Source of the DNA: Eledone cirrhosa
Lineage: Eukaryota
NCBI GenBank assembly: GCA_964016885.1
Contig: OZ024741.1
Coordinates: 350,858,001-350,922,000, forward strand
DNA: 64,000 bases
Reading direction: 5' to 3'
Numbering within the stretch: the first letter of the stretch is position 1; the number at the start of each line of letters is the position of its first letter. Below, in pieces: positions 16,101 to 60,700 of the stretch. The translations under genes were made by a program, and so were the position numbers. The notes below the pieces were generated by a model, which searched no databases, had not been told where the DNA came from, and saw only the letters and a list, made by a program, of their open reading frames with translations.

Positions 16101-19100
16101 TTTTGATACTAAGTTGATATCAATGTCATTTGAATGTGAATGGAGAAGACTAAATACTGTCTACATCCACTACCTGTTTATTTGTATGAGATGAAAATAT
16201 TGTTTAATTTTACTGTTATAATCATTCAGTTGAGTGCTGGAACTGCATTGCCAGGAATTGTTGCAGCGAAATGTCAGGCAGCATCAGTGATTCTCAGTGA
16301 CAGTTTCTTATTAGCTGATTGTCTACAACATTGTAAGAGTTGCTGTGCTGCCAATGATCTACCAGACTTGCCAGTTATTGGTATCACATGGGGACTTTTC
16401 TCACCTAACTTAATAAATCTGGCTCCAGTTGATATCATTCTTGGTTCTGACTGCTTTTATAACCCAAAAGGTAAATTTTATCTTGTTTTTTTAATTATTA
16501 TTATGGAGGCACATGGCTTAGTGGTTAGAGCATTGGCCTTGAAATCGAAAGGTTGTGAGTTCAATTCTCAGACCGGGTGATGTGTTGTTTCCTTGAGCAA
16601 GACACTTTATTTCACATTGCTCCAGTTTACTCAGCTGTAGAAATGAGATGATAGGGACTGGGGTCCATATCATTCCATTGCAAAGTGGTCGTGGAGGTGG
16701 CATGGCAAAAAAGCACCCAGCACTCACTATAAATGAGGTTGGTGTTAGGAAGGGCATCCAGCTGTAGAAATCAAGCCAAAATCAGTTCCCGTCCCACCCT
16801 TGCAAGCAGGGAAAAAGCGGACGTAAAATGAAATGATGATGGTCGTGGATTGGTGACATTGTTAATTTAGGCTAAAAACATGCAATTTGGGGATAGGTGA
16901 CCCCAATACTTTACTGGTACTCTATTTTATCAGCCTTGGAGAGATGAAGGGCAAACTTGACAATGGCTGGATTTCAACAAAGAACCTGAACAAAACTCTT
17001 GCAAAGCGTTTTCTGACATTGTAACAATCCTGGAAAATCAACAAGTGATTAATAATAAACATTAGATAAATTTTTATGTCTCGATTTACATTTCCAGGCT
17101 TCTTGGCCTTTTGGCAGTGTAGATTCTGTTCTTAGCTTAATGTCTGATACATACTCAGAGTGGTAGGTTGGTAGTATTGAGAGCGTCGGACAATATGCTT
17201 CACTGTATAGTTACACTTTACGTTCTGAATTCAAATCTTGCAGAGGTTAGCTTTGCCTTTCATCCTTACAGGGGTGGTGGTGGTGGGGGATCGATGAATA
17301 AAGCACTGGGGCCGATTTAATTGATTTTCTCTTCCCCGAAAATTGCTGGCCTTGTGCCTAAAGTAGAAACAATTATTTCCTAGATAAAATTTTTTTATTT
17401 CAGACTTTGAAGACATCTTAGTAACAGTGTCATTTATTTTAGAGAAGACCATGGAGTGCCAGTTTTGGTGCACTTACCAAGAACGAAGGTAGGTTCATGA
17501 TATTTTTTCTTTCTAGTACATCTACATTTCTCTTGTATTTGGCTATTAAATTTAAGAATCTAGTGCTGGTGCCATGATAAAATGCAGTTGGTAGAATATG
17601 GGCCCATATTTAAGCGAGATGCGGACGCTTCAGTGAAAATCTGCTCAACTCCTGCTAGCAGAGAAAGTGGACATGAAATTATATTTTAACAGAGAGAAGG
17701 AAAATGAAATTTGTGACAAGGTAACAGACAGACCTGGCTTAGATTATATGTATTGTGGAATATATGTAACTTTAGGAGATTAGTATCGGTGTACATATAA
17801 AATTATTACAAAAGACAATAAATGCCGGTGTGTGTTGTGATAATGTTTTTACTTCATAGAAGTCAAAGGTATTAATATAAATGAATCATTACCCGTGGAT
17901 CACAACTCCAGGCTGAAGTTTGTGGAGAAGAACAGAGATCTTCTCTAGGAGGTGTTAACATCTTCTTAGGCTCTTAGGCTGCCGGTTGCATTCTTCTTGG
18001 TGGCGAAGGATTATGAGAAAGGAATCATCTCATGCTAAGGTCGCAGGTGTTACCACTTTGGAATTCAGGAGGCGAGAGAGAAAGGTTGTCCTGACCTGTT
18101 CCTTTTATAGGGTCTGACCGGAAGTGACCAACAGGGAGTCTGTCAACCCCAAAGGGAAGTAACTCCAGCTACTTCCTGTCTAGAGAGCGGTGATGAGATT
18201 GTCATGACAAGGGAGGCAACTCTTGCTACATTATCTCCCGCCAGATTTTTAAAACATAAAAATCGAATGAAGCATGCATGGAGTAAGATGGCGAGCATGT
18301 AAGAGGCATGAAAATTATGATACAATGTAATAAAAGTAAGAGAAGAGATCAAAGTTCAAAATACAGTTCACATGTGTGCAATCACATGACAGCAGGAAAG
18401 AATGTGTTCCAGAGAATGAATGAATGCAGGTGGTTTCTGGTCTGTGGTATAACGTGAAATTTCCAACTTCCGAAGGGAATTTCTCACAGGAAGAGTGCTG
18501 CAGAAATAAATTGTCTGGCTTGTTCTGCTGGTTTTGGTTGTTGATGAAGCTGTGTTCTTGTTGTTGATGTTGTGAATGCGTTGACCTGGAAGGGTCAAGA
18601 AGCCAGCGACCAGAGAAATAAGCATTCTGAATAAATGCGCAATTTTCAACAGCAAATTTACATGGTAAATTTATAAACCGGCAAATAGAAGAATATAGCT
18701 TAAAATGTTCGTTGTAAAGGAAACAAAAAACATATATATAAATCCAGTGAAATGGTAATGAGAGGTACATTGTAATACAATAAATCACTAAATAACAAGA
18801 ACAGCAAAAAAAAAATATAAGGCTCCAGTGGCCAGTTCACATAAAAATAGTTTGGCAGAACTTTTTGGGCCAGTGGACTCTCCGACCGGAACGGGTTGTA
18901 GTCTTGTATGTAGGTGAAGGTGGGGCAGAAGGAGCAGGTGTATGCACAAGAGAGAAAGATTGGGGTATTTGTGGCTCGGGTGTATGAGCGTCATTGTGTG
19001 CCCTTTTCAGTCTATCCACCGAATTGTCTCTCTGGACCCCTTAACATCTACAGTGAAATGTTTGTCAGTACGTGCTAACACACGGTAGGGTCCAGAGTAT

Positions 19101-22100
19101 GGTTGTGTGAGGGGTGGTCTCACAGCATCGTTCCTTATGAACACATGGGTCCACGAGGCAATATCCCTCGGGACCGCAGGTTTTACAGTTTGTTTCCTCG
19201 TATCCATCGGCGGCAGGTCCTGAAAATAAGAACACAGACGGGATACGTAGGAAAGCGGATCTTGGAAAGCAAGATCAACAGGGGCAAGCATTTGCCCAGG
19301 CAATGCTAGAGGAGCACCGTAAAGTAATTCGGCCGGGGAGAACCCAAGGTCCTCCTTTATTGATGACCGAATTCCTAACAACACAATAGGAAGGTACTCG
19401 CTCCAACGTTGAGAGTCTGGATAGGAGCGAAGAGCGGCCTTTAATTGGCAGTGGAATCGTTCCACCATTCCATTTGACGCAGGATGATAGGCTGTGGTCC
19501 GAATCCGTTGAGCTCCAATTATTTTTGTGAGCTCAGAGAAGAGATGGGACTCGAATTGTCTACCACGGTCTGTGGTGAGTGTAGTTGGTACCCCAAAGCG
19601 GGTAATCCACCCTGATACCAGGGCACGTGCTACAGTCTCAGCAGTCATGTCTTGTAAAGGGATGGCTTCAGGCCATCGCGAAAAACGATCGACACAGGTC
19701 AATATGTATGAATATCCACTGCTGAATGGCCAAGGTCCAACGAAGTCAATGTGGATGTGTTGAAACCGAGCATCTGGAGTATTGAAAGTACCAAGTGGAG
19801 TTCGGATATGTCTATGGATTTTCGATTTCTGGCAAGCGATGCAGGAACGGCACCAAGCAGCAATGTCGCGCCTCATATTTGGCCAGAAGAATCTGGCTGT
19901 TATGAGCTTTACTGTGGCAGCAGATCCTGGGTGAGAAATGTTGTGTAAAGCTAGGAACACAATTCGACGGTGAGTCTCAGGAACAAGTGGTCGTGGTGCA
20001 TCCGTAGATACATCACATAGAATCTGCCTGTCGGTGGTGGACAAGGGCAGATATTTGAAAATGCAAGTCGCAAATTCAGCAGAAAGAGTGTCCAACGATT
20101 GGAGTGCAGGTTGGTCTGCAGCTAAACGACCTAAGTCGATCTCCTGGGATGACAAGATGGAGCTAATTGGCAAACGTGACAATGCGTCTGCAGCTATGTT
20201 GTGCGAGCCGGCAAAGTGCTGGATATCGTTTGTAAATTGTCAAACGTAGTCCAGGTGCCTTGTCTCTCTGGGCGAATATCTGTCGGCTTTGGCCCTCAAA
20301 GCGAAGGTCAACGGTTTGTGGTCTGTAAAATTTCTCCCCTCAAGAATATGAGAGTAATGTTTCACCGACAGATATATGGCTAATAATTCCCGCTCAAATG
20401 TGCTGTAACACGTTTCTGCTGGTTTCAACTTCCTCGAGAAAAATGTCAAAGGTTGTTGGTTTTCAGCGTAGGACTGCTGTAAAACTGCTCCCACAGCGGT
20501 ATCAGATGCATCAACACAAAGCGAAAGCTTAGCCTCTGGTACCGGGTGGGCTAGCAAAGATGAACTAGCGAGTGCTGTCTTGGCAGACTGGAAGTCTTGA
20601 AGCTGTCCTTGTGTCAAGGAAATATCCTCATTCTTCTTACGATGATTTTTTAAAATGTCAGTAAGGGAAGATAGAAAATTAGCACAATGAGGAACGAAAC
20701 GCCTATAGAAATTGATTAGGCCTAAGAAGTGACGCAACCGGTGAAGTGTAGTAGGCGGATGTAACTCCTGTATGGCTTGAACTCACTGAGGGAGCGGCCT
20801 AATACCTTCGGCATCGATGAGGTGGCCTAAAAAATTTAGGGAAGTGGAACCGAAAACACACTTTGCAGGATTCACGTGAACGCAGTAATCCTGAAGTCGC
20901 CGAAATAAGAGAAGCATGTGGCGCATATGCTCTTCTGGAGAGGAACTAGCGACGAGAATATCGTCTATGTAGGCATAAACGAAGTCCAGACCACGCGTGA
21001 CCTCGTCTATGAACCGCTGAAAAGTGCTAGCAGCGTTCCTGAGTCCGAAAGGCATGGTAAAAAATTCGAATGATCCGAAAGGGGTTGTAATCGCCGTTTT
21101 CGGAATATCCTCCTTCCTGACCGGAATTTGGTGGTAGGCTCGCACTAAATCTAACTTTGAAAAAATCTTACACCCCTGCAGTGAAGATGCAAAATCATGG
21201 AGATGGGGAATGGGATACCTATCCGGGACGGTCATGGCATTTAACCTCCTATAATCCCCAGTGGGTCTCCAGTCGCCGGAAGTCTTAGGCACCATGTGTA
21301 ACGGTGAAGCCCAAGGACTCGTAGATGGGCGAATAATGCCCAGCTGCAGCATATGGTCAAACTCGGACCGTGCTGCCTTTAATTTTTCCGTCGGTAAGCG
21401 GCGTGGACACGAAAACACTGGAGCACTGGTGGTGGAAACGAAATGTTCGGTAGAGTGTGTTGGGTCAGTTTACAGAAAGAACCCAGCAACGAATGGTAGG
21501 CGTCTCCAGCGGCAGCGACGAAGAACATGGGGCCGACTATTGGAGCATTGGCTTCCTGGCCATGAATTGAAAAGCCGGTGATGTTATCCACCAGGCGTTG
21601 GCCACGAACGTCCACAGTTAAAGAGAAGTTGTGGAGGAAATCCGCTCCTAAGATGGGGTATGGCAAATCGGCAACCGTAAAAATCCACTTAAAATCCCTT
21701 CGAAGATTTAGGAATTTGAGAGGAAGCAAGATTTTCCCGTACGTCTTTATAGACGAGTGGTTAACTGCCTGCAGCATAACAGATGACTCTATGGGGGTAT
21801 CTTTCAGGCAATGGACCGGCCAAATACTACAGGAGGCTCCTGTATCCACTAGGAAACCTCTTCTGGAAATGAGGTCCTTAATGAAGAAATGGCGGTTTGG
21901 TGGCTTTATGTTGAGGTCAGCTGACCCCATCAGAGGACCTCTTAGGCATTGCACGCAGTGATTCGCGTTCTCAGCAAATCGCTCGTGGTACCAGCATAAA
22001 GATGAAGCTGGTGATTTAGAACGTCTAAAACTTTGCGATCTCCCGCGACTGGGCACCACACAAGGCCTTCATCTTGTTGAGCTCTATGGTGAGTTCCTGA

Positions 22101-24008
22101 ATGGACCTTTGCATCGCCATAATGGTTGAGCTGTCTATTGGCGCTGCCGCGTAGATCGCATGGCCGTGTGTGGCCCGAGCTGGGTGCTGAACAGCGGCAA
22201 GGGGGTCGCTGCCTCCGGCATTCGTCACCTCGAAAACTTTGTCCGCAGATGCGGCAAGCTGATCCACCGTGCTTGTATCCCTCATGGGGGCCAAAATTGC
22301 CTGTACGTTGGTCGGCAGGCGCGAGAAGAGCAACTGCTTCAGCAGGGCAGTTTCCTCTACCGACCCCTCCGTTAGATCTTTCATTCGCCTTAGGAGGTTC
22401 GATGGGGTGCCATCCCCTATATGTTCCAGATGGACCAAAGCCCTAAATCTTTTTTCTGAAGACTGTTCTGTCTGGCTGAGTATTTCAGCCTTCAGAGACG
22501 TGTACGACGAGTCTGTGGGTGTCTCTAACACCAGGTCCTTAATCGCTGGGAGAATTGCCGGCGGAATTGCGCTGAGGACCACAGGACGTTGTAGTTCCTC
22601 GTCAACTCTGTTCGCCTTGAAGAATGCTTCTAACTGGGCGAACCATAGCCCTACGTCGCCCGTGTACGTTGGCAGAACAGAGTGGGAAGCCATTGGTATA
22701 CCGTAGGCAATTTACCGTTTGGAAAAATGTCTCTAACGCAACAGAAAAGGAAAACAAAATCGCTTATTTTTCCCTGTCAAACCACTGGACCGGAAAAATA
22801 ATGCATCCGGGACAATATGCAAAGCGATTAAGTGAATGCTGTTATTACTAAGGTAAGGGGAAGGAACTTAAAACAAAATCCAACATGGCAGACTATTTCG
22901 CGCCAAAAACACTAATGATGGAGAAGAGAGACTCCATCTTGTCATCCTCAAAAGTTTTTAGCCAGAGAAGAGAAGGGCAGAAAAGGAGAGAAAAAAAAGG
23001 CAAAAACATTCATCCAATTGCTGTTTGTTTGTCAATAATTGTAGGTGTTCGTTTTGTATTAAATTATTTTTTTTCTCTCTATATACACCGTATACCATTT
23101 CCCATTTTTTTTTTAAAATCACGTCGGGGGTCACCACTTTAGGAGATTAGTATCGGTGTACATATAAAATGATTACAAAAGACAATAAATGCTGGTGTGT
23201 GTTGTGATAATGTTTTTACTTCATAGAAGTCAAAGATATTAATATAAATGAATCATTACCCGTGGATCACAACTCCATGCTGAAGTTTGTGGAGAAGAAC
23301 AGAGATCTTCTCTAGGAGATGTTAACATCTTCTTAGGCTCTTAGGCTGCCGGTTGCATTCTTCTTGGTGGCGAAGGATTATGAGAAAGGAATCATCTCAT
23401 GCTAAGGTCGCAGGTGTTACCACTTTGGAATTCAGGAGGCGAGAGAAAGGCTGTCCTGACCTGTTCCTTTTATAGGGTCTGACTGGAAGTAACTCCAGCT
23501 ACTTCCTGTCTAGAGAGCAGTGATGAGATTGTCACGACAAGGGAGGCAACTCTTGCTACATAACTATTTTAATTCCAATAAACTTTTCAATTAAAAACAT
23601 TGCCATCCCTCAATTTTCAGCTCAGGCATAGTAATGCTGGTGCCAAGAAAATGTAACCAATACATTCTGTAAAGTGGTTGGTGTCAGGAAGAGCATCTAG
23701 CCATAGCAATCATGCCTAAATGAGCAAGATGGGGTTATCTGACCCAGCTAGCTTCAGACCATAATGATCTATGCCAGCATGGAAAGCAGACGTAAAATGA
23801 TATTACTGTCTCTCAATTTTTCTTTATTTTGCTTTTCAGCTCAGACCAATCTATAGAACTTCTATTGAAACGATGGGATTTGAATTGTCGTCAAATATCC
23901 TTGGCTGAATTCCAAGCTGATGGTCTAGATATTGCCAGTTCAGGTCTCCCAGGAAATCACTCTATTCAAATACTGAAGATATCTAAGAGAAAACCAAAGA
24001 TTGGATGA
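13023..24008 (+). CDS. METTL23: Methyltransferase-like protein 23 (seven-beta-strand MTase), complete, 5 exons, 227 aa
   Basis: Exons 13023-13106, 15313-15417, 16230-16470, 17404-17488 and 23840-24008 total 684 nt. Motifs: [64 protein letters not shown]. Confidence 0.93.
13455..15000 (+). mobile_element. Degenerate CRE-like non-LTR retrotransposon (RT plus RLE) in METTL23 intron 1
   Basis: [48 protein letters not shown]...LIWDA; collinear with the 34-37 kb copy. Confidence 0.85.
15313..15417 (+). CDS. METTL23: METTL23 exon 2
   Basis: [35 protein letters not shown], cag/gtaagg ends. Confidence 0.93.
16230..16470 (+). CDS. METTL23: METTL23 exon 3
   Basis: [15 protein letters not shown]...[13 protein letters not shown], cag/gtaaat ends. 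Confidence 0.93.
16507..16841 (+). mobile_element. tRNA-derived SINE family A
   Basis: Full-length copy, almost identical to 30064-30398. Confidence 0.85.
17098..17150 (+). pseudogene. U2 snRNA 5' fragment (degenerate)
   Basis: GCTTCTTGGCCTTTTGGC--AGTGTAGATTCTGTTCTT-AGCTTAATGTCTGATAC aligns with gaps to the first about 67 nt of U2. There is no Sm site or 3' half. Confidence 0.75.
17404..17488 (+). CDS. METTL23: METTL23 exon 4
   Basis: (D)[27 protein letters not shown], cag/gtagg ends. Confidence 0.92.
17772..18230 (-). repeat. Gypsy 3' LTR (459 bp)
   Basis: Direct repeat of 23139-23560. Confidence 0.93.
18837..22059 (-). pseudogene. Gypsy pol (protease, RT, RNase H, integrase), broken by frameshifts and stops
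   Basis: LVDTGAS, ILGADFL, PFGLRNA, YIDD, DAS...ERELLA...TDHKPL, HHCC zinc finger, DDE core ([22 protein letters not shown]), GPY. Confidence 0.93.
22025..22693 (-). CDS. Gypsy Gag (222-aa ORF)
   Basis: WFAQLEAFF...PSNLLRRM...FSRLP; located between the PBS and the protease. Confidence 0.85.
   Translation of the reverse strand: MASHSVLPTYTGDVGLWFAQLEAFFKANRVDEELQRPVVLSAIPPAILPAIKDLVLETPTDSSYTSLKAEILSQTEQSSEKRFRALVHLEHIGDGTPSNLLRRMKDLTEGSVEETALLKQLLFSRLPTNVQAILAPMRDTSTVDQLAASADKVFEVTNAGGSDPLAAVQHPARATHGHAIYAAAPIDSSTIMAMQRSIQELTIELNKMKALCGAQSREIAKF
23139..23560 (-). repeat. Gypsy 5' LTR (422 bp)
   Basis: Begins TGTAGC on the minus strand; followed by AG and the PBS TGGTGACCCCCGACGTGATT. Confidence 0.93.
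23840..24008 (+). CDS. METTL23: METTL23 exon 5 (stop)
   Basis: [24 protein letters not shown]...[20 protein letters not shown]. Confidence 0.92.
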
Positions 24009-24627: not shown

Positions 24628-24785
24628 GACTGGGTGCCCCCCCCCCCCGATGATTTCCTTCGAAAAAAATAATTCTAGTCCTGTAGAAGCCAATTCTATA
24701 TTAAATGTTATTGTATTCACTCTACTAATGTATTGAGTACCTTACTTAAATGGTCCTCGGCCTGCCTGAGATTAACTACTATGTA
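24628..24785 (+). mobile_element. Degenerate copy of the hammerhead-bearing short repeat
   Basis: Shares GATGATTTCC...TTCTAGTCCTGTAGAAGC...TGTATTGAGTACCTTACT with the 38.6 and 57.7 kb copies; the catalytic core is mutated. Confidence 0.7.
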
Positions 24786-31600: not shown

Positions 31601-34600
31601 TGTAATACATTGCCATCCAAACAAATCCGGTTAATTGCATAAGAATTTCAATCACTGACGCTATGCAATTAACGAAACAATTATACCAGCTTACAGGTAA
31701 ATCAACTCAAAAGCTGAGAATAAAAGGTCTTGATTATGAATATTGGTGACAAGATAGAAAAATAATCCCAACTTACTAACCACTCCACGTGACCCAGTAT
31801 TCTATATATAAAATAATTTAAGAATTTGAATATTACAATAGCCTAACTAATGAAGGTGCATGGCTTAGTGGTTAGACTGCTGAGCTCGGGATTGTCATGT
31901 CATCGGTTTGCTTCCTGGACTAAACAGCATATATTCTTGAATAAAACACTTTATTTTACATTGCTCCACTCAACTCAACTGAAAGTGAGTACTAGCAGCA
32001 GTAACTGGATGTTAAACCTGTGACCAACTGATGTCTCATCACTTAACAAATCCAGGATATGCCTCCAGACCAAAGACAGACTTTAACCCTTTAGCATTTA
32101 CATTACTCTATATTTGCTACATTTTTATGGTAAAGTCTTTACCTCACATAATATCGAATCTATAAAAATTTTGGTATTACTTATTTTGAGAATACTTTAA
32201 GATCAGTATGAGTGGCCGGTTCGAACAGAAAGAGGAGAGAGAATTCTAGCCAGATACGGCTGGTTTAAATGCTAAAGGGTTAATAACCTGTTAATGTAAC
32301 TAACATCTAAGCCATGCCAAAATGGAAAGCACATGATGATGAATGTCAAAACATAATATATAAAGGAGAAATTACCTTAGCATTAGTTTTTAACATTTCA
32401 ATTTCTTCTTTTGACCGTTTCAATGTCTCAACAGAGACTCCAAATTCTGTAGGTGCTGGTTGAAGCTCATCATCATAATTTAAATCTGGGAAGAATATAT
32501 AATAGTAATGATGATTACTCAAATTATAAGCAGAAGGCCAGACATTTTCAACAAGGGCACAATGGTTAAAATGGCATTCCCTTCCCTACTACTTAAATAC
32601 TTATTTCAAAATGACTATGAAGAGATAAAAGGCAAAGTTAACCATGGTCAGATTTGAACTAGGAAACAAAGGAGCTTACAAAAATATGACATACCACTGC
32701 TCTTATAATACTTTCTAATTTAAGAATTCAGTAATATAGGTTACTGACGACCCCAAGGAATGCGCAGAGCTCATTGCTGAATGCTATGCAGGCATTTTCA
32801 CTATTGAAGACCAGAGCGTACCATCTCCACCACCTATGACACCGGACTCTATTACAACCATGGAATTTACACCTGCAATGCTGCGACATCACCTAAAAAA
32901 ATAAACACAACCATGCCTCTCCTGGTCTTGATGGTGTTACGTACCTGCTTCTTAAACGTGGTGGGTACTTCCTTCTGCACCAGTTATCACGCTTCTTCCA
33001 ATTCTGTCTGAACAACGGTGCTACTCCAGAACAGTGGAAAACTACCAGTGTCATTCCTCTGTTCAAAAAGGGTGACCGCACATCATCTGTGAACTATCGT
33101 ACAGTCAGTCTTACTAGTTGCATTGCCAAACTGATGGAATCCTGTGTCAGAGAAACTTCTGGAACTCTCACAGTCTTATCCGGCCCTTGCAATTTGGCTT
33201 TATCCCCAACTCCAGCTGCTGTGATCAACTTATCGAGTTTCTTGAAGACATCACCCAGATCACTGATGGCGGCTCATGGGTGGATGTTGTTTACCTTGAC
33301 TTTGCGAAAGCCTTCAATTCAATTCTTATGACAAAACTCTCTGCAATGAGTGTGAAGGATGATCTTTTTAACTGGTTGAAGTTCTTCATTCTCAGTCGAA
33401 GAGAGGTAGTGACGGTTCTGGGACAGCATTCCTCACCATATGAGATGTCATCTAGTGTACCACAGGGATCTGTTCTTGGCCCCCTTTTGTTTGTGGCATA
33501 TATTAATGACATAGATGCCAACTTAAAGAATTCCACAGTACTAAAGTACACAGATGACATCAAGCTGTACCTTGAGATAAAAAGGACAGATCTTGAACAC
33601 TATAGATCTTGCTTGCAGTCTGACCTGGACACAATGCAACAATGGATCTCAGACTGGCAACTCAAGCTAGCTGTGGACAAGTGCACCACCATGCATTTTG
33701 GGAGTAAAAACCCAGCGTCCACATACTCCCTCCACAGCACTAATATCAAGAAGTCTTCTTGTGAACGTGACTTGGGCATTACGGTCAGCAGCGATTTGCG
33801 TTGGACGAAGCACGTCTCTAAAATTGTCAAGAGGGCCGAGGGTGTCATAGCATCATTCAGCAAGACCTTTGTCAGCCGCTCTCCAGCTATCTATTTAAGG
33901 CTGTACATGGCTATGGTGCAGCCACACTTAGAATTTGCATCACCAGTCTGGAACCCCTATCTTGCTCAGAACATTGATCACCCGGAAACTGTTCAGAGAC
34001 GTGCAACCAAGCGAATACCCGCCATCAGGCATCTACCATACTCTGAACGCCTTGCTTCCCTGGGACATTGAAGCTCCGACGCCTGGCAACAACAGAGAGG
34101 CAAGTGTGTTATATATATGTATGAGATGAAAGAATGGTATTTAACTAATGTAATGGTACGCGATGGGGCCCATGCACAGCTCCGGCGGACAGAATGGAGA
34201 AGGCGTTTCCCCAGAGGACAGCAAGGGAGATGCGCTGGAAAAGCCACTCCAACTCGCGGGGCTCACACCTACGGCTGGCCAGCTCAGCGCCTATGGTGGT
34301 GAGTAAGGAGATAGCCCTGGGGCCGAGGACACCAGAAGTTTCCACTGCCAGGAGAACGACCGCAAACCTGTCGGAGAACGACCGGTATTTGAGGAGTTTG
34401 GCCCCCTCAGCCCGACGTGCAGCAGAACCTGGGTCAGTTGCAGACTGCACCAGGTTGCAGCTGCAGAAAGTGTCAGTGCAAGTGGCATCCCAGACGAGGG
34501 GTTTGCCACCGCGGAATGGGAAGATGGTCATGCCATCTGGCCTTTTGCCGTGCCCTCGATCCAGCCCCACCGGCTCGAGCTGGGAAGGGAAGCCTGCAGC

Positions 34601-37600
34601 ATCCAAGCCATGCTTAATGACCTCATTGAGGGCAGTATGGCGTGGAATGCAGCCGGCACTGTGGCAACAGGAAAGCGGGTGGAGGCCGAATGAGTCCACA
34701 GTGGAACCGCAGCGACATTGGTGTGGCTGGCAGATCCGGAGGCCGAGCCTCAGGGAAACGCAAATTCGTAGGCTATGGTTGTCTAGCTGCGTGCCAGTGG
34801 AGAAGGAAGGCAGAGCATGGAGCCAGGCACCACTGTGGGGTTTGGAGGCCGCACGAAAACAAGCAAGGCGGTGCTGGTTGTGCTGGTGCGTGAGCCTGTC
34901 TGAGGCCAGGCTGCACTGGATGGCATCCCAAGTGCGTTGGGGGTCTTGACGTCAATAGGGAGAGAAGGAGGGACGTCTACTGGGCTAAGTCCCAACCAGT
35001 CCCACGTCTCACAAGCGGCCTTACGTTCTCTGAACACAGAGGGTTCTGTTGTGTTTTGAAGAACCCTGCTGACGAGGACACGGCACGGGGTTACCGACGA
35101 AAGATACGCCGGCAAAGCTAGTGAGATCGGGGACCGGTAAAGTGGCCTGTTGTCACCCTATGTCGTGAAACTTGACGTTGCATATCCCCTCGGCTGCTGC
35201 TCGGATACAAGTATCGAGGTCAGCGAGGAGAGATGTCTGGGTGTAGCATGGAGCGTTGCGGAGTGTATAGAGAAGCTTCGGCATGGCGAAGTAGTTCCTC
35301 CGCAGAAAGCTGGGTGGCCGTCAATGAAGCCCGGTCGGCTCGTGAGAGTTTGGAGTTGTTGAAGCATGGACCTGATGGTGGAGCAGATGGCTGGCGGGTG
35401 GATCGGTGACCCAAGGATGAGGACATCCTCTTTGGGGGTCACCTGAACCTGGCGGAGAATGGACCGCACGTCCAAGACGGAGGCTGCAAAGCTCACAGCA
35501 TTGAGGCTGACGTTCACCACCTCCTTGGCCGAGTTGACCTGGAGGCCGATTCTCGCCAGGGCAGGAATCACCGATTGAAGGTCTTGGCAGACCGTTCGTA
35601 CGGGCCCGCCTAACGTAGCATCACCCAGATACCAAAAGTTGAGAGGGCCCGTGATACTCCGGGCGAACAGGAGGGGTCCCAAAGGGTCGCCCTCTTGGAC
35701 CCCAGTGGCCGAGGGTATGACCGTATCAGCAGCTAGGAGCATGCTCGGGGCTCCATATGACAGGTAGGCCAGCGGGTAGGCAGAGGGGGCTCGGCTGAGG
35801 CAGGCCTCGAGCAGATGATCCCGGCGTAAAGAGTTAAAGGCATTCCTCATGTCAAGCTTGACAATGAAGTGGCTGGAGTCTCTGAATGCTGGTACCGATG
35901 GGCAGCTGCTGAAGAATTGCCTGATTGCATGAGAGGCTCCCTCACAGCCACCGGATACGCCAACACCCAGTTGCACCGGACTAAACTCCTCACCTAGTTC
36001 ATGTGTGACGGACTTGCAGATCACCTTGGCAGCCAGCCTCCAGAAGACATTGCCCACAGCAATGGGACGTATGCCACCCTTTTTCTTCCTGAGAGCGGTG
36101 AGGCTGGCCGAAAAAAGAGGCCTTAGGCGTAAGGGTCGAGGGCACCATGAATGAGCCTATTGGTGAGCGCCACAATTGCACTCAGAAGAGAGGGGGGATG
36201 TAAACTCCTTGAGGTGGCCTGGTCGGAGACCATCAACACCTCCACAGATGCTAGCTGGGAAGGACCTGATAGCGGACATGATATCTGCATCAGTAGCCAC
36301 AAGGAGCAGGTGGGGGTCGGGTGGGGGTATGGGTCTGAGATCAGTGGGTGGCTCAGGGCGTTCGAGCTGCAGAGCAGCCAGGATCTCGGTGGGTTGGAGG
36401 ACAGTGTCCTCTGAGGTAACAACTCTGACTGCGGCCGAGACATCACCCATGATAAGCTTTGCGTTTACCTGGTCACGCAAACGCTTGGCGCTGTCCTCGG
36501 GGGTACCTGAGGGTGGGGTGTGTGGCGTCCCTGGGCACGCTTGGAATGGACGCTCGCCCAAATGACGAGACATTGGCCTTGACGAAGGCTGCTGCTGACC
36601 GGCCGCCCTGGTCACTGGAGCTGGGGAGGCCGAGGGCCAGTAGGGCGAAATAGAACAGCCGCTCCCGGTCACTGGCTTGATTGGAGTCCAGGGTGCTCTC
36701 AATCGAGGAAGCAAGAGCATCGGCCACCGGCACTCGTGCCGCTCTCGACATCCTGAGTGGGATCTTCCGGAGCCGCCTGAGCCGAGCGATGTTGACCAGC
36801 GAGGCTCGGGTGTCAGGCAAGCTCGCTGTCCCATCTGGTGGTGTGCCAGATGGCCGTGGCTGGGAAGAGGCAGCTCCTGCACCTCCACGCTGCGAGGGCA
36901 TTGGAAGATCGACGAGTCAAGCCAACGCAGGTGAGGTGGAGGAAGCAGCCGCACCCCAAACAGTTCCGGCTGCTCTTCCGTTTGTTAGTAGTGCCACAAG
37001 TGCTGCAGGAGTCAATTTGGAGGGGTGTGGCGCACTGAGCGGCATCAGGGGTGGGTGGCTGGTGTGTGTGGTTGGAAGGGAAAGTCCTGGTAAGAGGGCA
37101 GCATAGCTCACCTATATATATGGAGGTGCCAGAAAACGAGAGCGAAAAGGGGCAGTAAATGAATGAGTGAATGGATGGATGTACACACAAAAAAAGGGGG
37201 GGACAAGGGGTTGTTCCCAGCGGAAAGACCCAGAAAACAGCACGCACACATGCAAGCAACTGAGCAGTTTGTTAAAGACAATATTCTCAATGGACGTGCT
37301 TACAATATTTGAATATAACTGAACAGTCGTGTCATTTAATTTGAAAAGTGGAGCAAAGTAAAAGGAAAATAGTGAATTTGGAGTGTCAATCCCTTGTGAT
37401 TTTTTTTCCAATACCAGACTTAGTTTTCCAGGATTTATACTCACCCCCCCCCCCCATCAAAAGGATGGAGGCGTTTTATCTCCTCATGAAACTGACATTA
37501 CTTAATGATGTTCGTCATCTATGGCTTATTCATATGTATTATTTCATAACTCTATAGAACTATAAACACCCACAAAATTATTAACCATCTTGCCAACAAC

Positions 37601-38540: not shown

Positions 38541-38595
<55 letters not shown>

Positions 38596-38775
38596 AGAGC
38601 TTCTACAGGACTAGAACTGTTTCATTCATGAGAAATCATCAGGAAGCTCTGATGATTTCTCACAAATGAAACAGTTCTAGTCCTGTAGCTCTTCTATATT
38701 AAAACATTTATACTCTGCTATGTATTGAGTACCTTACTGACTGTGGTTACCTCCGATTCAACCCGGAATAACTTA

Positions 38776-38819
<44 letters not shown>

Positions 38820-51750: not shown

Positions 51751-54700
51751 TATATATCACCATCATCACCGTTTAACGCCTATTTCTACATGCTTGCATG
51801 GGTTAGACAGGTCGTGCCATTGAGACAAGTTAAATGAAATGAATGTCATGCTCATACAGAACTGATTTTGGTTTGGTTTTTATGGCTGGATGCCCTTCAT
51901 AATGCCAACCACATTTTCAGAGTGGACTGTGTATTTTTTTTATTGTGACACCTACACAACAACTTTACAGTGTGGACTGGGCGCTTTTTGTCGTGTCTCC
52001 TACATGACCACTTCAGTGTGGACTGGGTGCTTTTTGACGTGTTATCACCTCATCCCAAGTCTTCCTACTCCATAGCTTCCATCAACTTCGAGTGCGCTAC
52101 ACCTTTTTATAGAGCTGTCATCCTTCATACACATCACATGTCAATACCAAAGCAATCTCCTCTCCTGTACACTGCATTCTACGGAACACACACACAATAT
52201 CATTACAAATATATGCAAGATACAGAAAAGGTCATTGTTACCTGTGTAAAGAACTGGGGTTGGCTTTCGATACTTTACAGTAATTAAATAACAACTCAGT
52301 AGCAAAAGTCTCCAGACTAAAGAGAGACTGTAAGATCGCATTTAAATAACAAGTGTTGCCCATATTGGTGAGTCTAAAAAGATAAAAGAAATTAATATAT
52401 GAGAAAAATGTAAGCATTTATATACAAAAGCAGGAACTAAATCAAAGTATTTAAAAGATGAAACAATCAATAAAGAAACATATCAGTTCTTAATACATCT
52501 TGGACATAGCCCCTTCAGCTGCTTCTACATTGTTCTGCTGTAATTTCATAAACCTTATTAAAGGACAAACCTGCAAACCCATCACTGCCCACCTCAATAA
52601 ATAAATAAATATATAGTAACAGAGAAGACCCGCCTTGCCAGTAGGCATCTCTAACAAACTACACCCCGTCCCGCCACCACCCCCACCCCATCCACACCAC
52701 CCCGTTCTATGTAAAGTTATGTTGGTGCCGCGCCATCCAGGCCGAAACAAATGAGATCGTGTAGGTGTCACGACAAAAAAACACACAGTCCACGCTGTAA
52801 TGTGGCCGTGTAGGCAACACGGTAAAAACCTCCCAGACCCACACTGTAAATGTGGTTGGTGTTAGGAAGGGCATCCAACTGTAGAAAACCTGCCAGACAG
52901 TCCTATGCGAGCAAGACAATCACTCTTGCCTCAAGTGGGACTACCCCCGTCCAAACCCATGCAAGCGTGGAACACGGACGTTAAACGTTGATGATGATGA
53001 TGATGATGATATAAATAAATAAATTTTGTATCGGGACAAAGGATAGAATTTTTACCCCCTCCTTTCCTACACACTGAACAAGGCCATTTCCTTGATGAGA
53101 TCAGGACCTTGTTGCCTTTGTCAAGTTCACTTTAAAACTATTAATTCCAAGTTAGGCATCTAGAGGTGGAATTTTTCTCTAATTTGGCCATATATATATA
53201 TATATATATAATACATACATACGTATGTATATAGATATATAATACACACACATATGTATGTATATATATGCACACGCATTTTATACATATATAAATAAAT
53301 ATTTGCTCTACGGTTCTTATATATTTGATATATATTTATCCTTATCGAGCCCTCTTTGGATTTTAGTCTTCAAATTTATTATTATTACTAATGTGGCCAT
53401 GTAGGTAACACGGTAAAAACCTCCCAGTCCACACTGTAAACGTGGTTGGTGTTAGGAAGGGCATCCAGCCGTAGAAAACCCGCCAGACAGTCCTATTCGA
53501 GCAAGACAACCAATCTTGCCTCAAGTGGGAAAATTCCTGTCCAAACCCATGCTAGCGTGGAAGATGGATGTTAAACGATGATGATGATGATGATGTATAT
53601 ATAAGCAGGTGGTAACAACCTCAATGACCACAAATGCCCCGTGGAAATAAGCATTGGCACATCTATCGGAATGCATGCGCACACAAACAGATGTAGGAAG
53701 ACAAAAGCACTGACATTGCTTTTGTTCCTCCTAATCTTCCAGTTGAACATTTGTTTTCTGTATGAATGTTAGATTAGAGATGTCCACATGTAAGGCCCTT
53801 TTGGTCGGTGTGGGATATATATATATTATATAAATGCTGTTTACTCGAGAGAAGACTACGTTGGTATGGCCACGTGATGCGCATGAAAGACAACAGCTGT
53901 ATAAAAAAGTGCAAATTGATGGTAGTTACGGAATAGGTAGACCTAGAAAAGCCTGGGACGATCTGATAAATTCCGACCTTATACAGTTGCACCTCTCTAA
54001 GACAATGTCACTGGACCAACATCTTTGGCGCTACGCAGTAATACAGAAGACCCGCCTTGCCTATGTACAAAGCGAAACCTAGTCAGTAGGCACCTCATAA
54101 CCAAATATACACCCAATCCACTACCCCTACTCTATCCTCCCACTCCCACCAACACCACCCTCTCACTATAAAGTTGGTACCACAACATCCAGTCCAAATA
54201 AATGAGATAAATGAGATCGAGGTCATGGAGGTGTCATGAGAAAAAAAAACACAGTCCACGCTGTAATGAGGCCATGTAGGTAACACGGTAAAAAGTTCCC
54301 AGTTCCACACTGTAAATATGGTTGGTGTTAGGAAGGGCATCCAGCAGTAGAAAACCTGCCAGATAGTCCTATATGACTGAGACATGGTCACCCGACCAAC
54401 CTTGCCTCAAGTGGGACAACTCCCGTCTAACCCATGCTAGCGTAGAAAATGGACGTTAAACGAAGATGATGATGATGATATATATACAACACATTTTTTA
54501 CCCTCGTTTTCTTTTCACATGCTGTCTCTCTACGAAGTCATCTACTCCCTTCCTCTCTCTTACATTATTATTAGTGTTGTTGTATTTATCATTTCGATGT
54601 CTCTACTCCCTTCGAAATCCTAACATTAACATTTCGCCTTGTCTAATATAGGTACTCGTATCGGTTTATTTTGCCCCGAGATGCTATAGGCCATGATGGC

Positions 54701-57700
54701 TACCTATCTCACAATTTCCCTCCCGCCCAACCCCTCACACCACCATAGCCTATTCGACCAATCAAGCCTCAGCATGCCCCCCCCCCCCCATTACCAACCC
54801 CAACAAACTGCCATTACTACTACTACCTACCTCTCCTCCCAACACACCCTGCCATTATTACCACCACCACTGTTCTTCTAGCCCTGAATTCTCCTACCGT
54901 TATGTATGGATGAGCTGAGAATAAATGGAGCAACCCCGAATTAATAAAAATGAAAATGAATCTGCGAGCTACCAGGCACCCATGTGAAGTTTCAATTCAG
55001 AGACAGGAAGCATACACACACCCTTGCAAAAATCGACCCTTTCCCACGAATGTTGACAAATGCCCAAAACTCGGTAACCATCAATGTAAGCACAATGAAA
55101 GGAAGAGGAGAAATTGTAGAGATGCTAGAGCAAAATGAAATTGATGTATGCTGTGTGCAAGAGACTAGATGGAGAGGAGAGTCTGCTAGAGTCCTTGTAG
55201 GAAAAAGTCAGTGCTAGAAATTTTTCTGAGTGGGAAATGACAATAGGATGGGTGGTGTAGGTATCCTACTAGCTGACAAGTGGTAATCTCAGTGAACAGG
55301 GTGAAAGAATCATTAAACTCAGACTAGTCCTGAATAAAACAATTACCACAATAATATCAGCTTATGCACCCCAATCGGGGTTGCCAGACGAACTTAAGGA
55401 TAGGTTTTATGAGCCCTTAATGCACACTACTGCTCTAACAAATGACAATGACTTCTTAATCATTGCAGGAGATTTTAACAGACACGTAGGTAAACACCGT
55501 GATGGCTTCTATAGAGTCCATGGGGTTGGCACAAGAAATGAAGAAGGCTTCAGGCTTCTAGAATTCTGCGACGCCAATGACATGCCGATATGTAACACAA
55601 ACTTCAACAAACCCGACACCCACCTGATCACCTATAGATCAGGGGAGCATTCTAGTCAGATAGATTTTATCCTCATCAGAAGACGCGACAGATGGACGGT
55701 CGTAAATACAAAAGCCTTTCCTAGTGAGGAATGTACCTCCCAACATAGCTTAGTTGTCAGCGACCTCACGGTCAGAACTAGACGAACCTGGAAACAGAAG
55801 CCAACCTGGAGAAGAAAGATCTGGAAGCTGAAAGACCTCTCAGCCAGTAACAGATTTAAAGATATTTTACTCAACGCCTATGACAGTAAAGAAGAACAGA
55901 TAGAGACATTCAATGTAGAAGAGCACTGGGAGTTCCTAAAAAATAACTTACTAAAGGTGACGGATGAGATCTGTGGCTGGACTAAGACCACAAGCAGGAG
56001 GAGAGTGACTTGGTGGTGGAACAATAAGGTAGATGAGGCAGTTAAAGCCAAGAGACAGGCATGGAAAGAATGGAACAATGGGGGAAGCAGGGTACATTAC
56101 ATAGAGACCAGGAGGGAAGCTAGGCGACAAGTATACTTAGCTAGGAGGGAAGCAGAGGATAAAAAATTCAAGCATGTTTTGCAACGCGAGGACCAGAAAC
56201 AGGAAGTGTTCAAGATTGCGAGGCAGTGTGTCAGAGAGAATTGTGATATCATTGGAGAGAAGTGTATCCGGAATGATAAAGGTGAGCTTGCCCTCACAAG
56301 TGCTGAAAAGAAAGATGCGTGGAAGAGCCATTATGATAGATTACTAAATGAGCAGAATGCATGGGAAGAAGAGACCCTACCCCAAGTGGACCCTATAGAG
56401 GGGCCAGCAGTACAAGTCAGCAGCAGTGTAGTAAGTAAGACATGGGAACTCCTGTATGCAATGACCTCGCACTTATAGCTGAATCTATGGTAGAACTAGA
56501 GAAGAAATTCCAAACTTGGAAGCAGGGACTAGAAAAAAAGGGTCTCAAAGTCAACCTGACAAAGACTAAGGTCCTTGTAAGTACACGAGAAAACAGAACC
56601 CAGATCCCCTCAGGGAAATGGCCTTGCTCAGTATGTAGGAAAGGTGTAGGTAGGAACTCCATTCTCTGCCCCAAATGCAAACAATGGGTACACAAGAGAT
56701 GTAGCGGGATCTCAGGAAGCTTAATTAAGAATGTAGGATTCACATGTCGCAGCTGTGCTGGGACAGCAAGCAGCAAACAGCCACAGGAAACAAATACCAC
56801 CAAACTCTGGGAGGGCTCTGTAGAAACAGTAGACAGCTTCTGCTACTTAGGTGAACGAATTAGCAGTGGAGGTGGGTGTCCGGAAAGTACAATAACTAGG
56901 GTAAGAACGAGATGGAAGAAGTTCAGGGAGCTACTGCCACTGCTAGCTGCAAAAAGCTTTTCCCTCAAAATGAAAGGCAGACTGTATGATGCGTGTATCC
57001 GAACAGCAATGTTGCATGGTAGTGAGACCTGGGCGCTGTCTGTGGAAGACTTGCGTAGATTAGAAAGAAACAAAGCCTGCATGCTCCGATGGATGTGTAA
57101 TAGTAATATATACGTGAACGGCAAAGCATAAATGAATTGAGAGAGAGACTAAGCATAAGAGGAATCAAAAGCTGTGTGCAGGAGAGGCGGTTGCGTTGGT
57201 ATGGATATGTGATGCGTATGAAGGACGACAGCTGTATAAAAAGGTGCAGAGCAGTAGAATTCGATGGAAACTGCGGAGTGGGGCGACCCAAGAAGACCTG
57301 GGATGAGGTGATAAAAGTTAACCTTACCCAATTACACCTCTCAAGGTCGATGACACACGACCGTGACCTCTGGCGTCACGCAATAATACAGAAGACCCGA
57401 CCCCCCAAGGGTACAAGCCGAAGGTGAAGCATATAGACAATAAGCCCCCAGACCCTCCCACTGCAAAAAAGCATCCAGCCCTCACTGTAAATGAGGTTGG
57501 TGTTAGGAAGGGCATCCAGCTGTAGAAATCAAGCCAGAATCGGTTTCCATATGAGCAAGACAAGGTCAGCCGACCGGACACTGCCCACAATAGGACAACA
57601 CGCCTCACCCATGCTAGCGTGGAAGAACGGACGTAAAACGGTGATGATGATGATGATGATATATATATATATGTGGACATCTCTAATCTAACATACATAC

Positions 57701-60700
57701 AGAAAACAAACGTTCGACTGGGCTTCCTGATGATTTCCCCCGAAGGAAACAGTTCTAGTCCTGTAGAAGCCTTTCTGTATTTAATATTCATACTCTGCTT
57801 TGTATTGAGTACCTTACTTACTGTGGTTACCCCCGATTAAACCCGGGATAAACATATATATATATACACAGGGTATCCCCCTAAAATGTATACACACTTC
57901 AACAGCATGCTAATAAATATTGCCTGTACAGGTCATCAAAGTGTGCATACATTTTGGGGGGACAACTTGTATATATATTTTTCCCCCTACCTAAGCAAGC
58001 ATGGAAAAATAGATGTAAAAGAATGAATATATATATAACAGCAACAACAAAACTGAAATAAAACTGCCACCTCATGTGATAAGTGAAGGAAAATGTTAAA
58101 ATAAATGAGCAAAAGGTATAAGAAAGTTCTATTACCCCCTTAAAGCAAGTTTTGGCACTGGGTAAACAGCTGCAACTGGAGGACTTTCAGCCTTCTTTGG
58201 TTGAGAATTTGTTGAGGAATCCACCAAAAGCCGTGGCCGCTTTACAGGTGTCATTTCACATCTCTTAGTCCTAGAAAAAGAAAGGATTCAGTTAGCCATA
58301 CAGCTACTGTTAGTATACTATTACCATCAGTATACAGCTACCATTACCATACAATTTACTACTGTAAAAAAAAACCTTTATTTAAATATCTATTGAGGAT
58401 CCGTCAATATACCAAAAACAATTAAAAAAATAAAAGGAATTAACTAAACCCACAAAATAGAGATATTTACAGAATTAACTAAACTCACAAAATAGAGATA
58501 TTTATAGAATTATCTAAAGCCAACACTTTGCTGCAGATTTTTTAACAGGTGCATTTGAAAGAAAATTTCTCCAGTTTTGCTTAATATCCATAATAAACAT
58601 ATCTGATTCATTTTTGTTTTGTTTAAGAAGCCTTAATGCTGTGTGTATCCAATTTAGAATAGGCACACCGTTTCTGTGCATGCTATAATATATAACAAAA
58701 ACGGTTTGTGACAAGAAAGGAATCCGGCCATAAACATTGCATTAAAAAAGGCCACCCAGGCCCTTGATGTGTGTTTAGCAGAGTTCAGTAAGTTGCAATC
58801 ACTCAAGCTATGTCAATAATCTGAGGATAACATCTTTCATCCCTTTCTATGTTTCTAAAAAGCAGAAGTTAGTGTATTTTGACGGGCATTCTATGCCAAA
58901 CTAAACACCCAATAAAAGAAAGGTTAAAAAAAAAGTAGTTTACCCCAGGATTCGTTTTCCACCAGTCACACATGAAGATTTATTCTTGTTATAGAAATTA
59001 TTTTTCCCTAGAGAAAAAATATTCTGGATCTTTTCATTTGCACGAGAAAGAAGGTTATCACCATTATATGATGGTGTTGATGACGATCTGGAAATTACAA
59101 AAAATATCTTTTTTTATGTAAACCATGCCACCAAACATGCAGAATAGTAAAACAAATGATAAATAACAAATATATAGCCCTAAAATTGGATAAAATTAAA
59201 TTTTGGTTTTCGATATAAATTCATGCATGCAGACATATGCACCTCTCTCTTCTACTAGCACAGGTGTGGCTAAAAAGGCTAAGAAGTTTGCTCTGTAATC
59301 ATGAGATCTTTGGCTCAATCCCACATACAATGTGGAAGCTTGGGTAAGTATCTTCTAGCATAGCAAATGTCGACCAAAACTTTCTGAAATTTAGTGGAAA
59401 CTGCTTGCAAGCTGTTAATGAAACAAGTATTTGCGGAATACTCAACCACTTACACTATAATACAAGAGTTGTGCTTGTAATTTAAACAGCCATCTGGAAC
59501 ACACTGTCTTGTCTAGTCAGCTTAGGGATTATGTGAATGGCACAAAAGTGTATGGAATATTTGGCCAGTTACACAATATACAACTAGCAGACCATTAGCG
59601 TCAACAATGATGGCAATAGCATTGAACATTTCTGGAGTCCAGGATCGGTATGCAATATATACCTAAATTACTGGATATACAAGCAGTGATACTTTAATCA
59701 TTTACTTCTATCTCCTGCCTTTTTTCTCATCACACCCCACCCTCCTTCCACTTCTCACTCATTATCCTTCTTTTGCATCCTCTATTTCTAACTATCTTCA
59801 GTTGAAGGACTAGTGCCTGCTTAAGACTCTTTTCCTGCTATCTGAAGTGTTAAACTAATATATTTCTTCAATGAACTGCATCATTTGCTTTGTTATTTCT
59901 GTTTACTTTTAACATATATATACAAACACAAACACATGATATATTCTAATATATGATGATTAGTTTTACTGATTGAACAACTGGCACACTCATCATAATT
60001 AAGAAGGAATCCATTAAATTTTTAACCCTTTGATACCTTTAAAACAAAGTCCCAACAATGCTAAAGTCCATTTTTTTAGTTTTTTAAAGGAGACCAGGAA
60101 CAAGAGTGGTGATCTTCACAATGTCAGAGTATTTTAATGGTTCACACTGGTTTGTCTAGATTCCTTACAAGATCAATTTTTTTCATTTCCTTTATTGTTT
60201 TGGTGCCACAATAAAAAGCACCCAGTCCATGCTTTAACCCTTTAGCGTTCAAAGCGACAAAATTATGTCCCCTTTCATTTATTCAAACCGACAAAAAAAG
60301 ACATTTAATACCACACGGAGATTTCCTTCTAAAAATAAACATTGACATCATCGAAATCTCGTCAATTCGAGATTACTGCGAGATAAAGCCCTTACGCGCG
60401 AAAATTAACTCTTAGTATAGTTAAAGAACTTGCGATAACACGTGTTTTTAACGTTGAAAGTGTAACATGGCTTCCGAAAGTAGCGACAACGAATTTGAAG
60501 GTTTTACGTCCGATGACATTCGAGATCAAAAAGAAACAGAAGATAATATCAGTGATTTATCTTCAAACGAATCAGATATATTTATTTCTGATATATCTGA
60601 TAATGATGATAGTTACTTTGAAAGTGAAAGAGAAGATTTGACTGACACCATTGAAAAAATAGCAACGTGGTTGAAAGAAACAACATTGATACATGTTTCG

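Follow-up and report, generated by a model that had tools for sequence, protein, structure and literature searches.

Probable origin of a hammerhead-bearing repeat of Eledone cirrhosa in a Penelope-like element, and a satellite formed by its sister subfamily

The window analysed was a stretch of 64,000 nucleotides (nt) of the Eledone cirrhosa genome (GenBank assembly GCA_964016885.1, contig OZ024741.1, positions 350,858,001 to 350,922,000, forward strand), and the subject of this work was a short repeat within it that carries a type I hammerhead ribozyme, compared with its relatives in the 3.0 Gb of genome searched. The repeat was assigned to the pseudo-long terminal repeat (pLTR) of a Penelope-like element (PLE). 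Family coordinates were counted from C3 of the hammerhead (57727 = 0), and cleavage would fall at +38/+39. The features at this locus and at the two other places of the window with related copies were as follows, with lengths in base pairs (bp):

57659..57672, no strand: left flank of the (TA)n target, preceded by another family's repeat that ends in (GAT)n
57668..57721, minus strand: 54-bp inverted copy of nearby DNA, joined at the 5' end of the short copy (stub) in place of the usual inverted arm; outside the family
57721, plus strand: putative transcription start of the parent element (-6 from C3), coinciding with the stub 5' edge
57721..57771, plus strand: type I hammerhead of the PLE pLTR, subfamily A
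57721-57726 / 57766-57771, plus strand: stem I
57727-57733 and 57746-57749, plus strand: core CUGAUGA and GAAA
57734-57745, plus strand: stem II region
57738..57745, plus strand: two changes favouring a slipped helix over core GAA, one rare (57738) and one private (57745)
57749-57752 / 57761-57764, plus strand: stem III, whose loop contains the palindrome CUAG
57765/57766, plus strand: predicted cleavage after a GUA triplet
57772..57793, plus strand: region (+53 to +66 from C3) in which the inverted arms of other copies terminate, giving the tail-less 3' end
57794..57853, plus strand: PLE "tail", about 60-65 bp, from which full-length elements run on 45-50 nt to the start of the open reading frame (ORF)
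57854..57867, no strand: (TA)n target, right side
38582..38647, minus strand: tail-less inverted arm with intact hammerhead, 7-bp stem I and U.U at the stem II base
38649..38785, plus strand: tail-bearing arm of the same head-to-head insertion, beginning at C3, hammerhead broken
24646..24748, plus strand: old degenerate copy, 78% identity, core broken

The first-pass annotation, made from the letters of the window, had described a hammerhead at 57721-57771, and this proved to be real: stem I, the core, GAAA, stem III, the CUAG loop, the GUA triplet and the cleavage position were all confirmed. The copy carried CUGANGA, GAAA, an NUH triplet and stems I-III in type I order, and a strict hammerhead descriptor gave two matches in the window (this copy and the minus-strand arm at 38.6 kb) and none in 100 shuffles. 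The Rfam hammerhead models, a check proposed by the same annotation, matched neither the window nor, at E<=10, the segment 57690-57850. The 4-bp stem II of the annotation was present in the focal copy but rests on the private G at 57745, found in none of 162 family copies (an ungapped, position-ordered set that excludes gapped copies); stem II of the family has 3 bp. The R10.1-Y11.1 pair closing stem II was absent, with U.U at 10.1/11.1 in 155 of the 162 family copies and U.G in the focal copy. The fourth pair comes from the G at 57745, which at the same time allows pairing between the stem II strand and core GAA: in the predicted minimum-energy fold stems I and III were kept and the stem II 5' strand paired with the core GAA (probability, P, 0.83), the canonical stem II having P 0.01 and the active fold lying 3.2 kcal/mol above the minimum. 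Nearest-neighbour models omit the tertiary energy of the core, so weaker rather than absent activity is predicted, and the focal ribozyme is probably weakened.

The repeat had been thought to begin at 57673. The family unit, of about 135 bp, starts at 57721 (-6) and ends at about 57853 (about +126) in (TA)n; 57668-57721 matched only an inverted local sequence at 53739-53792, 3.9 kb upstream and 93% identical. A genome search with 57668-57721 returned only these two places of the window, in a search that skips common words and leaves the rarity of the sequence unproven, and because of this result the possibility that it was an arm of a second PLE family was rejected. The 54-bp inverted duplication suggests that synthesis switched template to nearby DNA while the copy was being inserted. 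The G at 57720 may derive from the cap or belong to a 2-nt microhomology. An abundant short repeat ending in (GAT)n was observed at 57488-57657 and at 12 other places, the focal insertion lying in its terminal TA run. Contigs aligned to the focal locus left its left junction uncovered and bear neither way.

For the other copies of the window, the ribozyme followed by an about 80-nt tail reported at 38.6 kb was there as a related copy, but the intact hammerhead and the tail sit on separate, opposite arms; the tail-bearing arm was without the stem I 5' strand and had a 3-nt deletion after the cleavage site. The degenerate copy reported at 24.6 kb was found as described. The (TA)n said to adjoin each copy held for the family, 80 of 89 sampled copies having a TA run no more than 20 nt from their 3' end (TA runs being common in this genome), but at 24.6 kb the TA-rich patch lies about 30 nt past the match.

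The abundance proposed for the repeat was borne out: a 25-nt word of the tail had 15,745 exact matches in the genome (reversed control, 0) and a word from the 5' part of subfamily A had 1,740, both lower bounds, since diverged copies were uncounted. The ends of copies were studied in the first 90 of the 100 listed tail matches in chromosome order, one duplicate being dropped (L087, the same locus as L086); these 89 copies cover the first 37 Mb of one chromosome, and their ends, taken from BLAST, are fuzzy by a few bases.

The absence of an ORF, also part of the first description, was true of the stubs but not of the family. The tail ran into the same reading frame in two fetched copies (L067 and L160), and a search with that frame gave young copies 98-99% alike, with an intact ORF of 713 amino acids in two of them (L164 and L165) and a 721-codon open frame in 14 rows of fetched young copies. 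The single ORF encodes a putative reverse transcriptase (RT) followed by an endonuclease of GIY-YIG type at the C terminus, with YRDD and IVY-x-YIG motifs conserved in 17 homologues; the 713-amino-acid protein also has RWR, DKT, a CNC-x5-C linker, CDLC and CMH, and a GIY-YIG without CCHH. It had 1,404 homologues at E<=1e-10, the best full-length one at 45% identity. By every motif tested the parent is a Hydra-clade PLE, a placement drawn from sequence motifs in which the named Hydra proteins were compared by eye. The link to Penelope elements that the first-pass annotation had proposed to look for therefore exists: the unit belongs to the pLTR of an element with an RT/GIY-YIG ORF.

The full element consists of a pLTR (promoter region, hammerhead, tail), the ORF, a 3' untranslated region (UTR), and a second hammerhead and tail, about 5.4 kb per repeat, in (TA)n. 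The best example (L222, repeat length 5,394 bp) has an inverted tail-less arm, pLTR, ORF, microsatellite-rich 3' UTR and second hammerhead with tail, and four others (L223-L226) are similar, with both pLTRs present; pLTR hammerhead, partial tandem, inverted copy and tail were thus all found in the parent element. Two full-length copies with intact ORFs (L222 and L223, on G000:C1164 and C4) were 99.8-100% identical over the compared parts, a near-identity that points to very recent activity, and about 2 kb of microsatellite-like sequence in their 3' UTR is passed from copy to copy. A more distant Hydra-type ORF (L283, G000:C2:300,252,120-300,255,562; 44-58% to L164) begins directly behind the terminal TA run of a subfamily C element and represents a second family inserted at the same target. 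In the stretch compared, contigs of a second organism (organism B, run X5) spanned the promoter region, hammerhead and tail, and not the first 190 bp of the ORF.

Three subfamilies (A, B and C) each had ORF-bearing members, a subfamily C copy, for instance, continuing into the ORF (L275). The focal unit was identical at 123 of 133 positions to an ORF-bearing copy (L196) and at 114 of 133 to the young L164, and it grouped with ORF copies of subfamily A, an older subfamily, in a rough tree of fixed windows that include some flank and is to be read qualitatively. A 440-bp unit was also considered as a separate non-autonomous family and rejected, truncation at the microsatellite tract being simpler: all of its 30 best matches start at a TA-rich edge, full elements carry the microsatellite tract there, and an ORF-bearing copy (L034) shares the edge. 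No full-length subfamily A element was found among the fetched copies, and the truncation reading is thus unproven.

Most copies are stubs, and the 5' ends of the 89 copies were sharply distributed: 45 at -8..+3, 1 at -35..-9, 27 at +4..+74 and 16 at -36 or beyond, with a single end at +37..+41, where the ribozyme would cut, and two copies running into the ORF. Sixty-one copies had an adjacent inverted arm, tail-less in nearly every case, and 44 of these arms also stopped at -8..+3. Among 30 subfamily A copies sampled in position order, all retaining base -6, 27 end at that base. A TATA box was located at -35 to -37 in 8 of the 9 ORF-bearing copies printed, across diverged subfamilies between which the spacer diverges, and places the expected start at about -6; the summed contig depth of public run X1 rises abruptly at -6 and drops by a factor of about 1000 beyond the tail. 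Transcription would accordingly begin with the first stem I base, 30 nt downstream of the TATA box. The arms had two fixed 3' ends (+53 to +66 and +126 to +132 from C3), which fit the two internal RT start sites and the uncut template of an Anolis PLE in vitro (PMC11167929, in the available text) and were counted for a run-off origin of the copies.

The focal unit corresponds to the hammerhead-and-tail end of the pLTR of a protein-coding Hydra-clade PLE, and we consider it probable that the copy is an abortive reverse transcript of the front of an uncut messenger RNA. The pLTR promoter would start the RNA at the first base of stem I, and the element endonuclease would nick both strands of (TA)n; each nicked end would prime the RT at one of the two internal sites, both complementary DNAs (cDNAs), 70 or 135 nt long, would run off at the 5' end of the RNA, and they would then be joined to each other, to the target or, at the focal locus, to nearby DNA with a 2-nt overlap. 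With a single ribozyme and without a promoter, the stubs would probably be dead ends. Long copies may pass the -6 edge by read-through RNA, by a circle or by a jump that uses the 45 nt of redundancy which a 3' cut leaves.

Several observations weigh against this explanation. Forty-one of the 45 copies piled up at stem I carry an inverted arm, and among the 28 arm-less copies only 4 begin at -8..+3, 3 beginning at +35/+36 near the cleavage site; microhomology at the joint, or a minority of cleaved templates, may therefore contribute. An extra G at -7 was seen in 15 of 27 junctions, most of them equally explained by the inverted arm, and as a cap-derived base it is suggestive only. Subfamily B has a pyrimidine tract and AG before stem I, a possible splice acceptor, as in Drosophila Penelope, where the intron ends at helix I (PMC4209133, available part). 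For the protein, Pfam gave no RT domain and only a weak GIY-YIG (E 0.067), the assignment resting on motifs, and every ORF-bearing subfamily A copy seen was broken.

Alternatively, the parent could be the same and the pile-up at stem I could reflect cDNA annealing, fold-back microhomology or a splice acceptor instead of a transcription start. The inverted arms of most pile-up copies, with overlaps of 1-6 nt at the joint, are what such an origin would give, but the edge is one-sided and the arms start at different fixed 3' ends, unlike a simple snap-back. As for splicing, which the tract of subfamily B and the Penelope intron would support, many copies keep the AG and none was found with a common upstream exon, and the TATA spacing is conserved while the spacer diverges. 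This alternative was judged quite unlikely, and run-off from a start at stem I is retained as the preferred explanation of the stubs.

At the family level, the differences between subfamilies fall on N7, loop II, one base of loop III and two stem I pairs, with the core kept. Both stem I pairs change on both sides among the 162 copies (-4/+42: A-U in 60 and C-G in 47; -6/+44: A-U in 64 and G-C in 40), a stem covariation that comes from few independent events, stems II and III being invariant. Covariation and a kept core are as expected if the source elements were selected for the fold, and the ribozyme appears to be under selection in the parent elements. After insertion, the core was unprotected: private changes in 69 young arms (sites with >15% mismatch set aside) amounted to 7 of 666 in the core, 6 of 1216 in the stems and 11 of 2127 in the tail. 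Two-strand folding favoured a swapped dimer over two monomers by about 10 kcal/mol in all four sequences tested; the dimer preference proposed by the first-pass annotation is thus reproduced in the predicted folds, together with the palindromic loop III, and the parent ribozyme likely cuts as a dimer. In several subfamily C copies (L081, L118, L119 and others), a change in loop III gives a palindrome of 6 nt instead of 4 and would make a dimer stronger.

The fold might instead be a non-catalytic relic, kept as a structure or a protein-binding signal, an idea compatible with the preferred explanation of the stubs and rather unlikely in our estimation. It would account for the U.U at 10.1/11.1, for the minor share of the canonical stem II in the monomer models of all types tested (P 0.01-0.18) and for templates that appear uncut, and PLE hammerheads cleave poorly in vitro (PMC4209133 and PMC11167929, available parts); the G10.1-C11.1 pair is called highly conserved in PLE hammerheads (available part of PMC4209133). 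However, an axolotl hammerhead whose helix II likewise has U.U at its base cleaves, and does so better as a dimer (available part of PMC7229834), and between subfamilies change is concentrated at N7, loop II, loop III and paired stem I sites with the core kept.

The first-pass annotation had inferred that the repeat was a non-autonomous, self-cleaving, retro-mobile RNA family. Its standing as an independent family was not supported, either for the unit, which is part of a protein-coding pLTR, or for the stubs, which are promoterless and non-tandem. A related explanation, a retrozyme family whose cleaved or circular unit RNAs are recopied by the PLE enzyme, was considered very unlikely. The copy number, very high with respect to ORF copies, would suit it, but the stubs have no promoter and 5' ends at the cut were nearly absent (1 of 89). 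The conservation of the ribozyme across subfamilies also speaks for it, but subfamilies A, B and C each have ORF members and the core is unprotected in young copies; the old subfamily of the 24.6-kb type had no ORF member among the fetched loci, where no specific search for one was made. A head-to-tail hammerhead array does exist, described below, but another hammerhead on the same strand lay within 1.5 kb at only 4 of 60 loci, and the short-period tandems listed were almost all in that one array. For the focal copy and the dispersed stubs, neither a head-to-tail arrangement nor an independent lineage was found, the oldest subfamily being unsearched. The preferred explanation of the stubs, as failed products of the parent PLE, thus stands, and the focal locus itself is one decayed stub.

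The array belongs to a sister subfamily and is new: a 78-bp hammerhead forms a satellite of about 377 kb at essentially one locus.

G000:C28:30,496,700-30,873,729: head-to-tail satellite of about 377 kb, 78-bp hammerhead monomer, subfamily B (samples L306-L319, L326, L327)

By length it has about 4,800 units, a figure that depends on an unverified assembly length; 14 of 14 samples inside were array and 3 beyond it were empty. A search for short-period tandems, begun from a joint in the contig data, gave 2,530 matches; those listed comprised, besides the C28 array, a piece of eight units on C1 and a small number of scattered pairs. The same array junction occurred at two places in the first 100 of the list, a set that includes every match preceding the array in order. 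The repeats are head to tail with a hammerhead in each unit, and among the matches listed they had not spread to many loci. The left edge consists of (TA)n and then an inverted tail arm of subfamily B, from which it follows that a single PLE insertion gave rise to the array. Foreign DNA of 0.4 kb, inserted and itself duplicated inside the array, points to growth at the DNA level. Of 570 monomers sampled, 438 keep every core base, and 389 of these also keep at least 11 of 12 pairs; change was 2.6% in the core vs. 3.3-4.6% at other sites (permutation p 0.06, with non-independent units), and the core was not clearly better kept. The C1 piece (G000:C1:350,200,253-350,200,842; L323) has eight 78-bp units with the same junction and unrelated flanks without (TA)n, and either moved there from the array or is an artefact of the assembly. 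Another tandem repeat, with a period of several hundred bp, begins directly at the right edge of the C28 array.

A wider proposal can be put forward only tentatively: Hydra-type PLEs might start their RNA at the first base of the hammerhead and make a retrovirus-like strong-stop cDNA that could jump to the 3' end, thereby building pLTRs, with the stubs as failed jumps, while one insertion grew into the satellite of about 4,800 hammerheads, most of them core-intact, a retrozyme-like array at birth whose parent is known. Were the downstream hammerhead to cut, the RNA would carry the same 45 nt at each end, and this is what would allow the cDNA to jump. Transcripts of the array, if it is transcribed, would be cleaved to pieces or circles of 78 nt.

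Other repeats of the window, named by eye from their motifs, were decayed Ty3/gypsy-type gag-pol frames with stops on the minus strand (19007-22711), accompanied by a long direct repeat at about 17769 and 23136 (98%), and decayed RT and endonuclease frames of several kinds of long interspersed nuclear elements (7409-9962, 33118-34071, 35158-36984 and 55273-57131).

Among known systems, and according to the available parts of the sources cited, the parent element resembles most the Hydra clade of PLEs with a C-terminal endonuclease (EN+) of Craig et al. 2021 (PMC8557442): a single ORF of about 700 amino acids with RW(K/R), DKT and a CxCx5C linker, a C-terminal GIY-YIG without CCHH, CxxC and CxH near the end, a canonical pLTR hammerhead, a (TA)n target, partial tandems, an inverted 5'-truncated copy and a one-sided tail. 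It differs from the published Hydra-1_Obim in its N-terminus and its hammerhead, and two exact-string searches of the supplement of that paper gave no match, although line breaks could hide one. The repeat is longer here because of the microsatellite-rich 3' UTR (5.4 kb, published Hydra ones being mostly <3 kb), the tail is longer (about 65 bp vs. 30-40) and there is U.U at the stem II base. The portion available of PMC13282606 did not mention hammerhead, Hydra or ribozyme.

The Anolis Poseidon element PAc (Frangieh et al. 2024, PMC11167929) is alike in its two internal RT starts that define the tail, in an AT-rich target cut on both strands and in an uncut RNA template, preferred in vitro, with no reads ending at the cut in the available text. 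It belongs to another clade, and its ORF starts inside the hammerhead, in contrast to 175-177 nt after C3 here. Copies ending at the transcription start are not described in that part of the report, and we found no report in the literature of PLE stubs of this kind. The PLE hammerheads of Cervera and de la Pena 2014 (PMC4209133) were mostly single motifs from truncated PLEs, with some opposite-strand pairs, a palindromic loop III and an expected dimer, all as in the present family, which differs in a longer stem III (4 bp and an 8-nt loop) and in having no G10.1-C11.1 pair. The role of the PLE hammerhead and the origin of pLTRs and inverted ends are described as unresolved in the literature consulted; here, a young and near-identical set of intact elements, the countable ends of thousands of stubs and a candidate start site make it possible to test whether cut or uncut RNA is copied and at which point that RNA starts.

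Metazoan non-LTR retrozymes (Cervera and de la Pena 2020, PMC7229834; Li, Clavereau and Pollet 2026, 10.64898/2026.07.22.740005; both in the parts available) share with the focal unit a type I hammerhead, a dimer-type stem III, an ORF-less unit and pLTR ancestry, whereas the focal copy is a promoterless monomer whose parent has an ORF. The C28 array does fit the operational definition of a retrozyme given by Li et al., at about 4,800 units vs. a largest count of 300 there (supplements to that work may list longer arrays), though at one locus and with a core not clearly protected. The 78-bp satellite is therefore a traceable case of a pLTR hammerhead becoming a tandem array, the route proposed for animal retrozymes.

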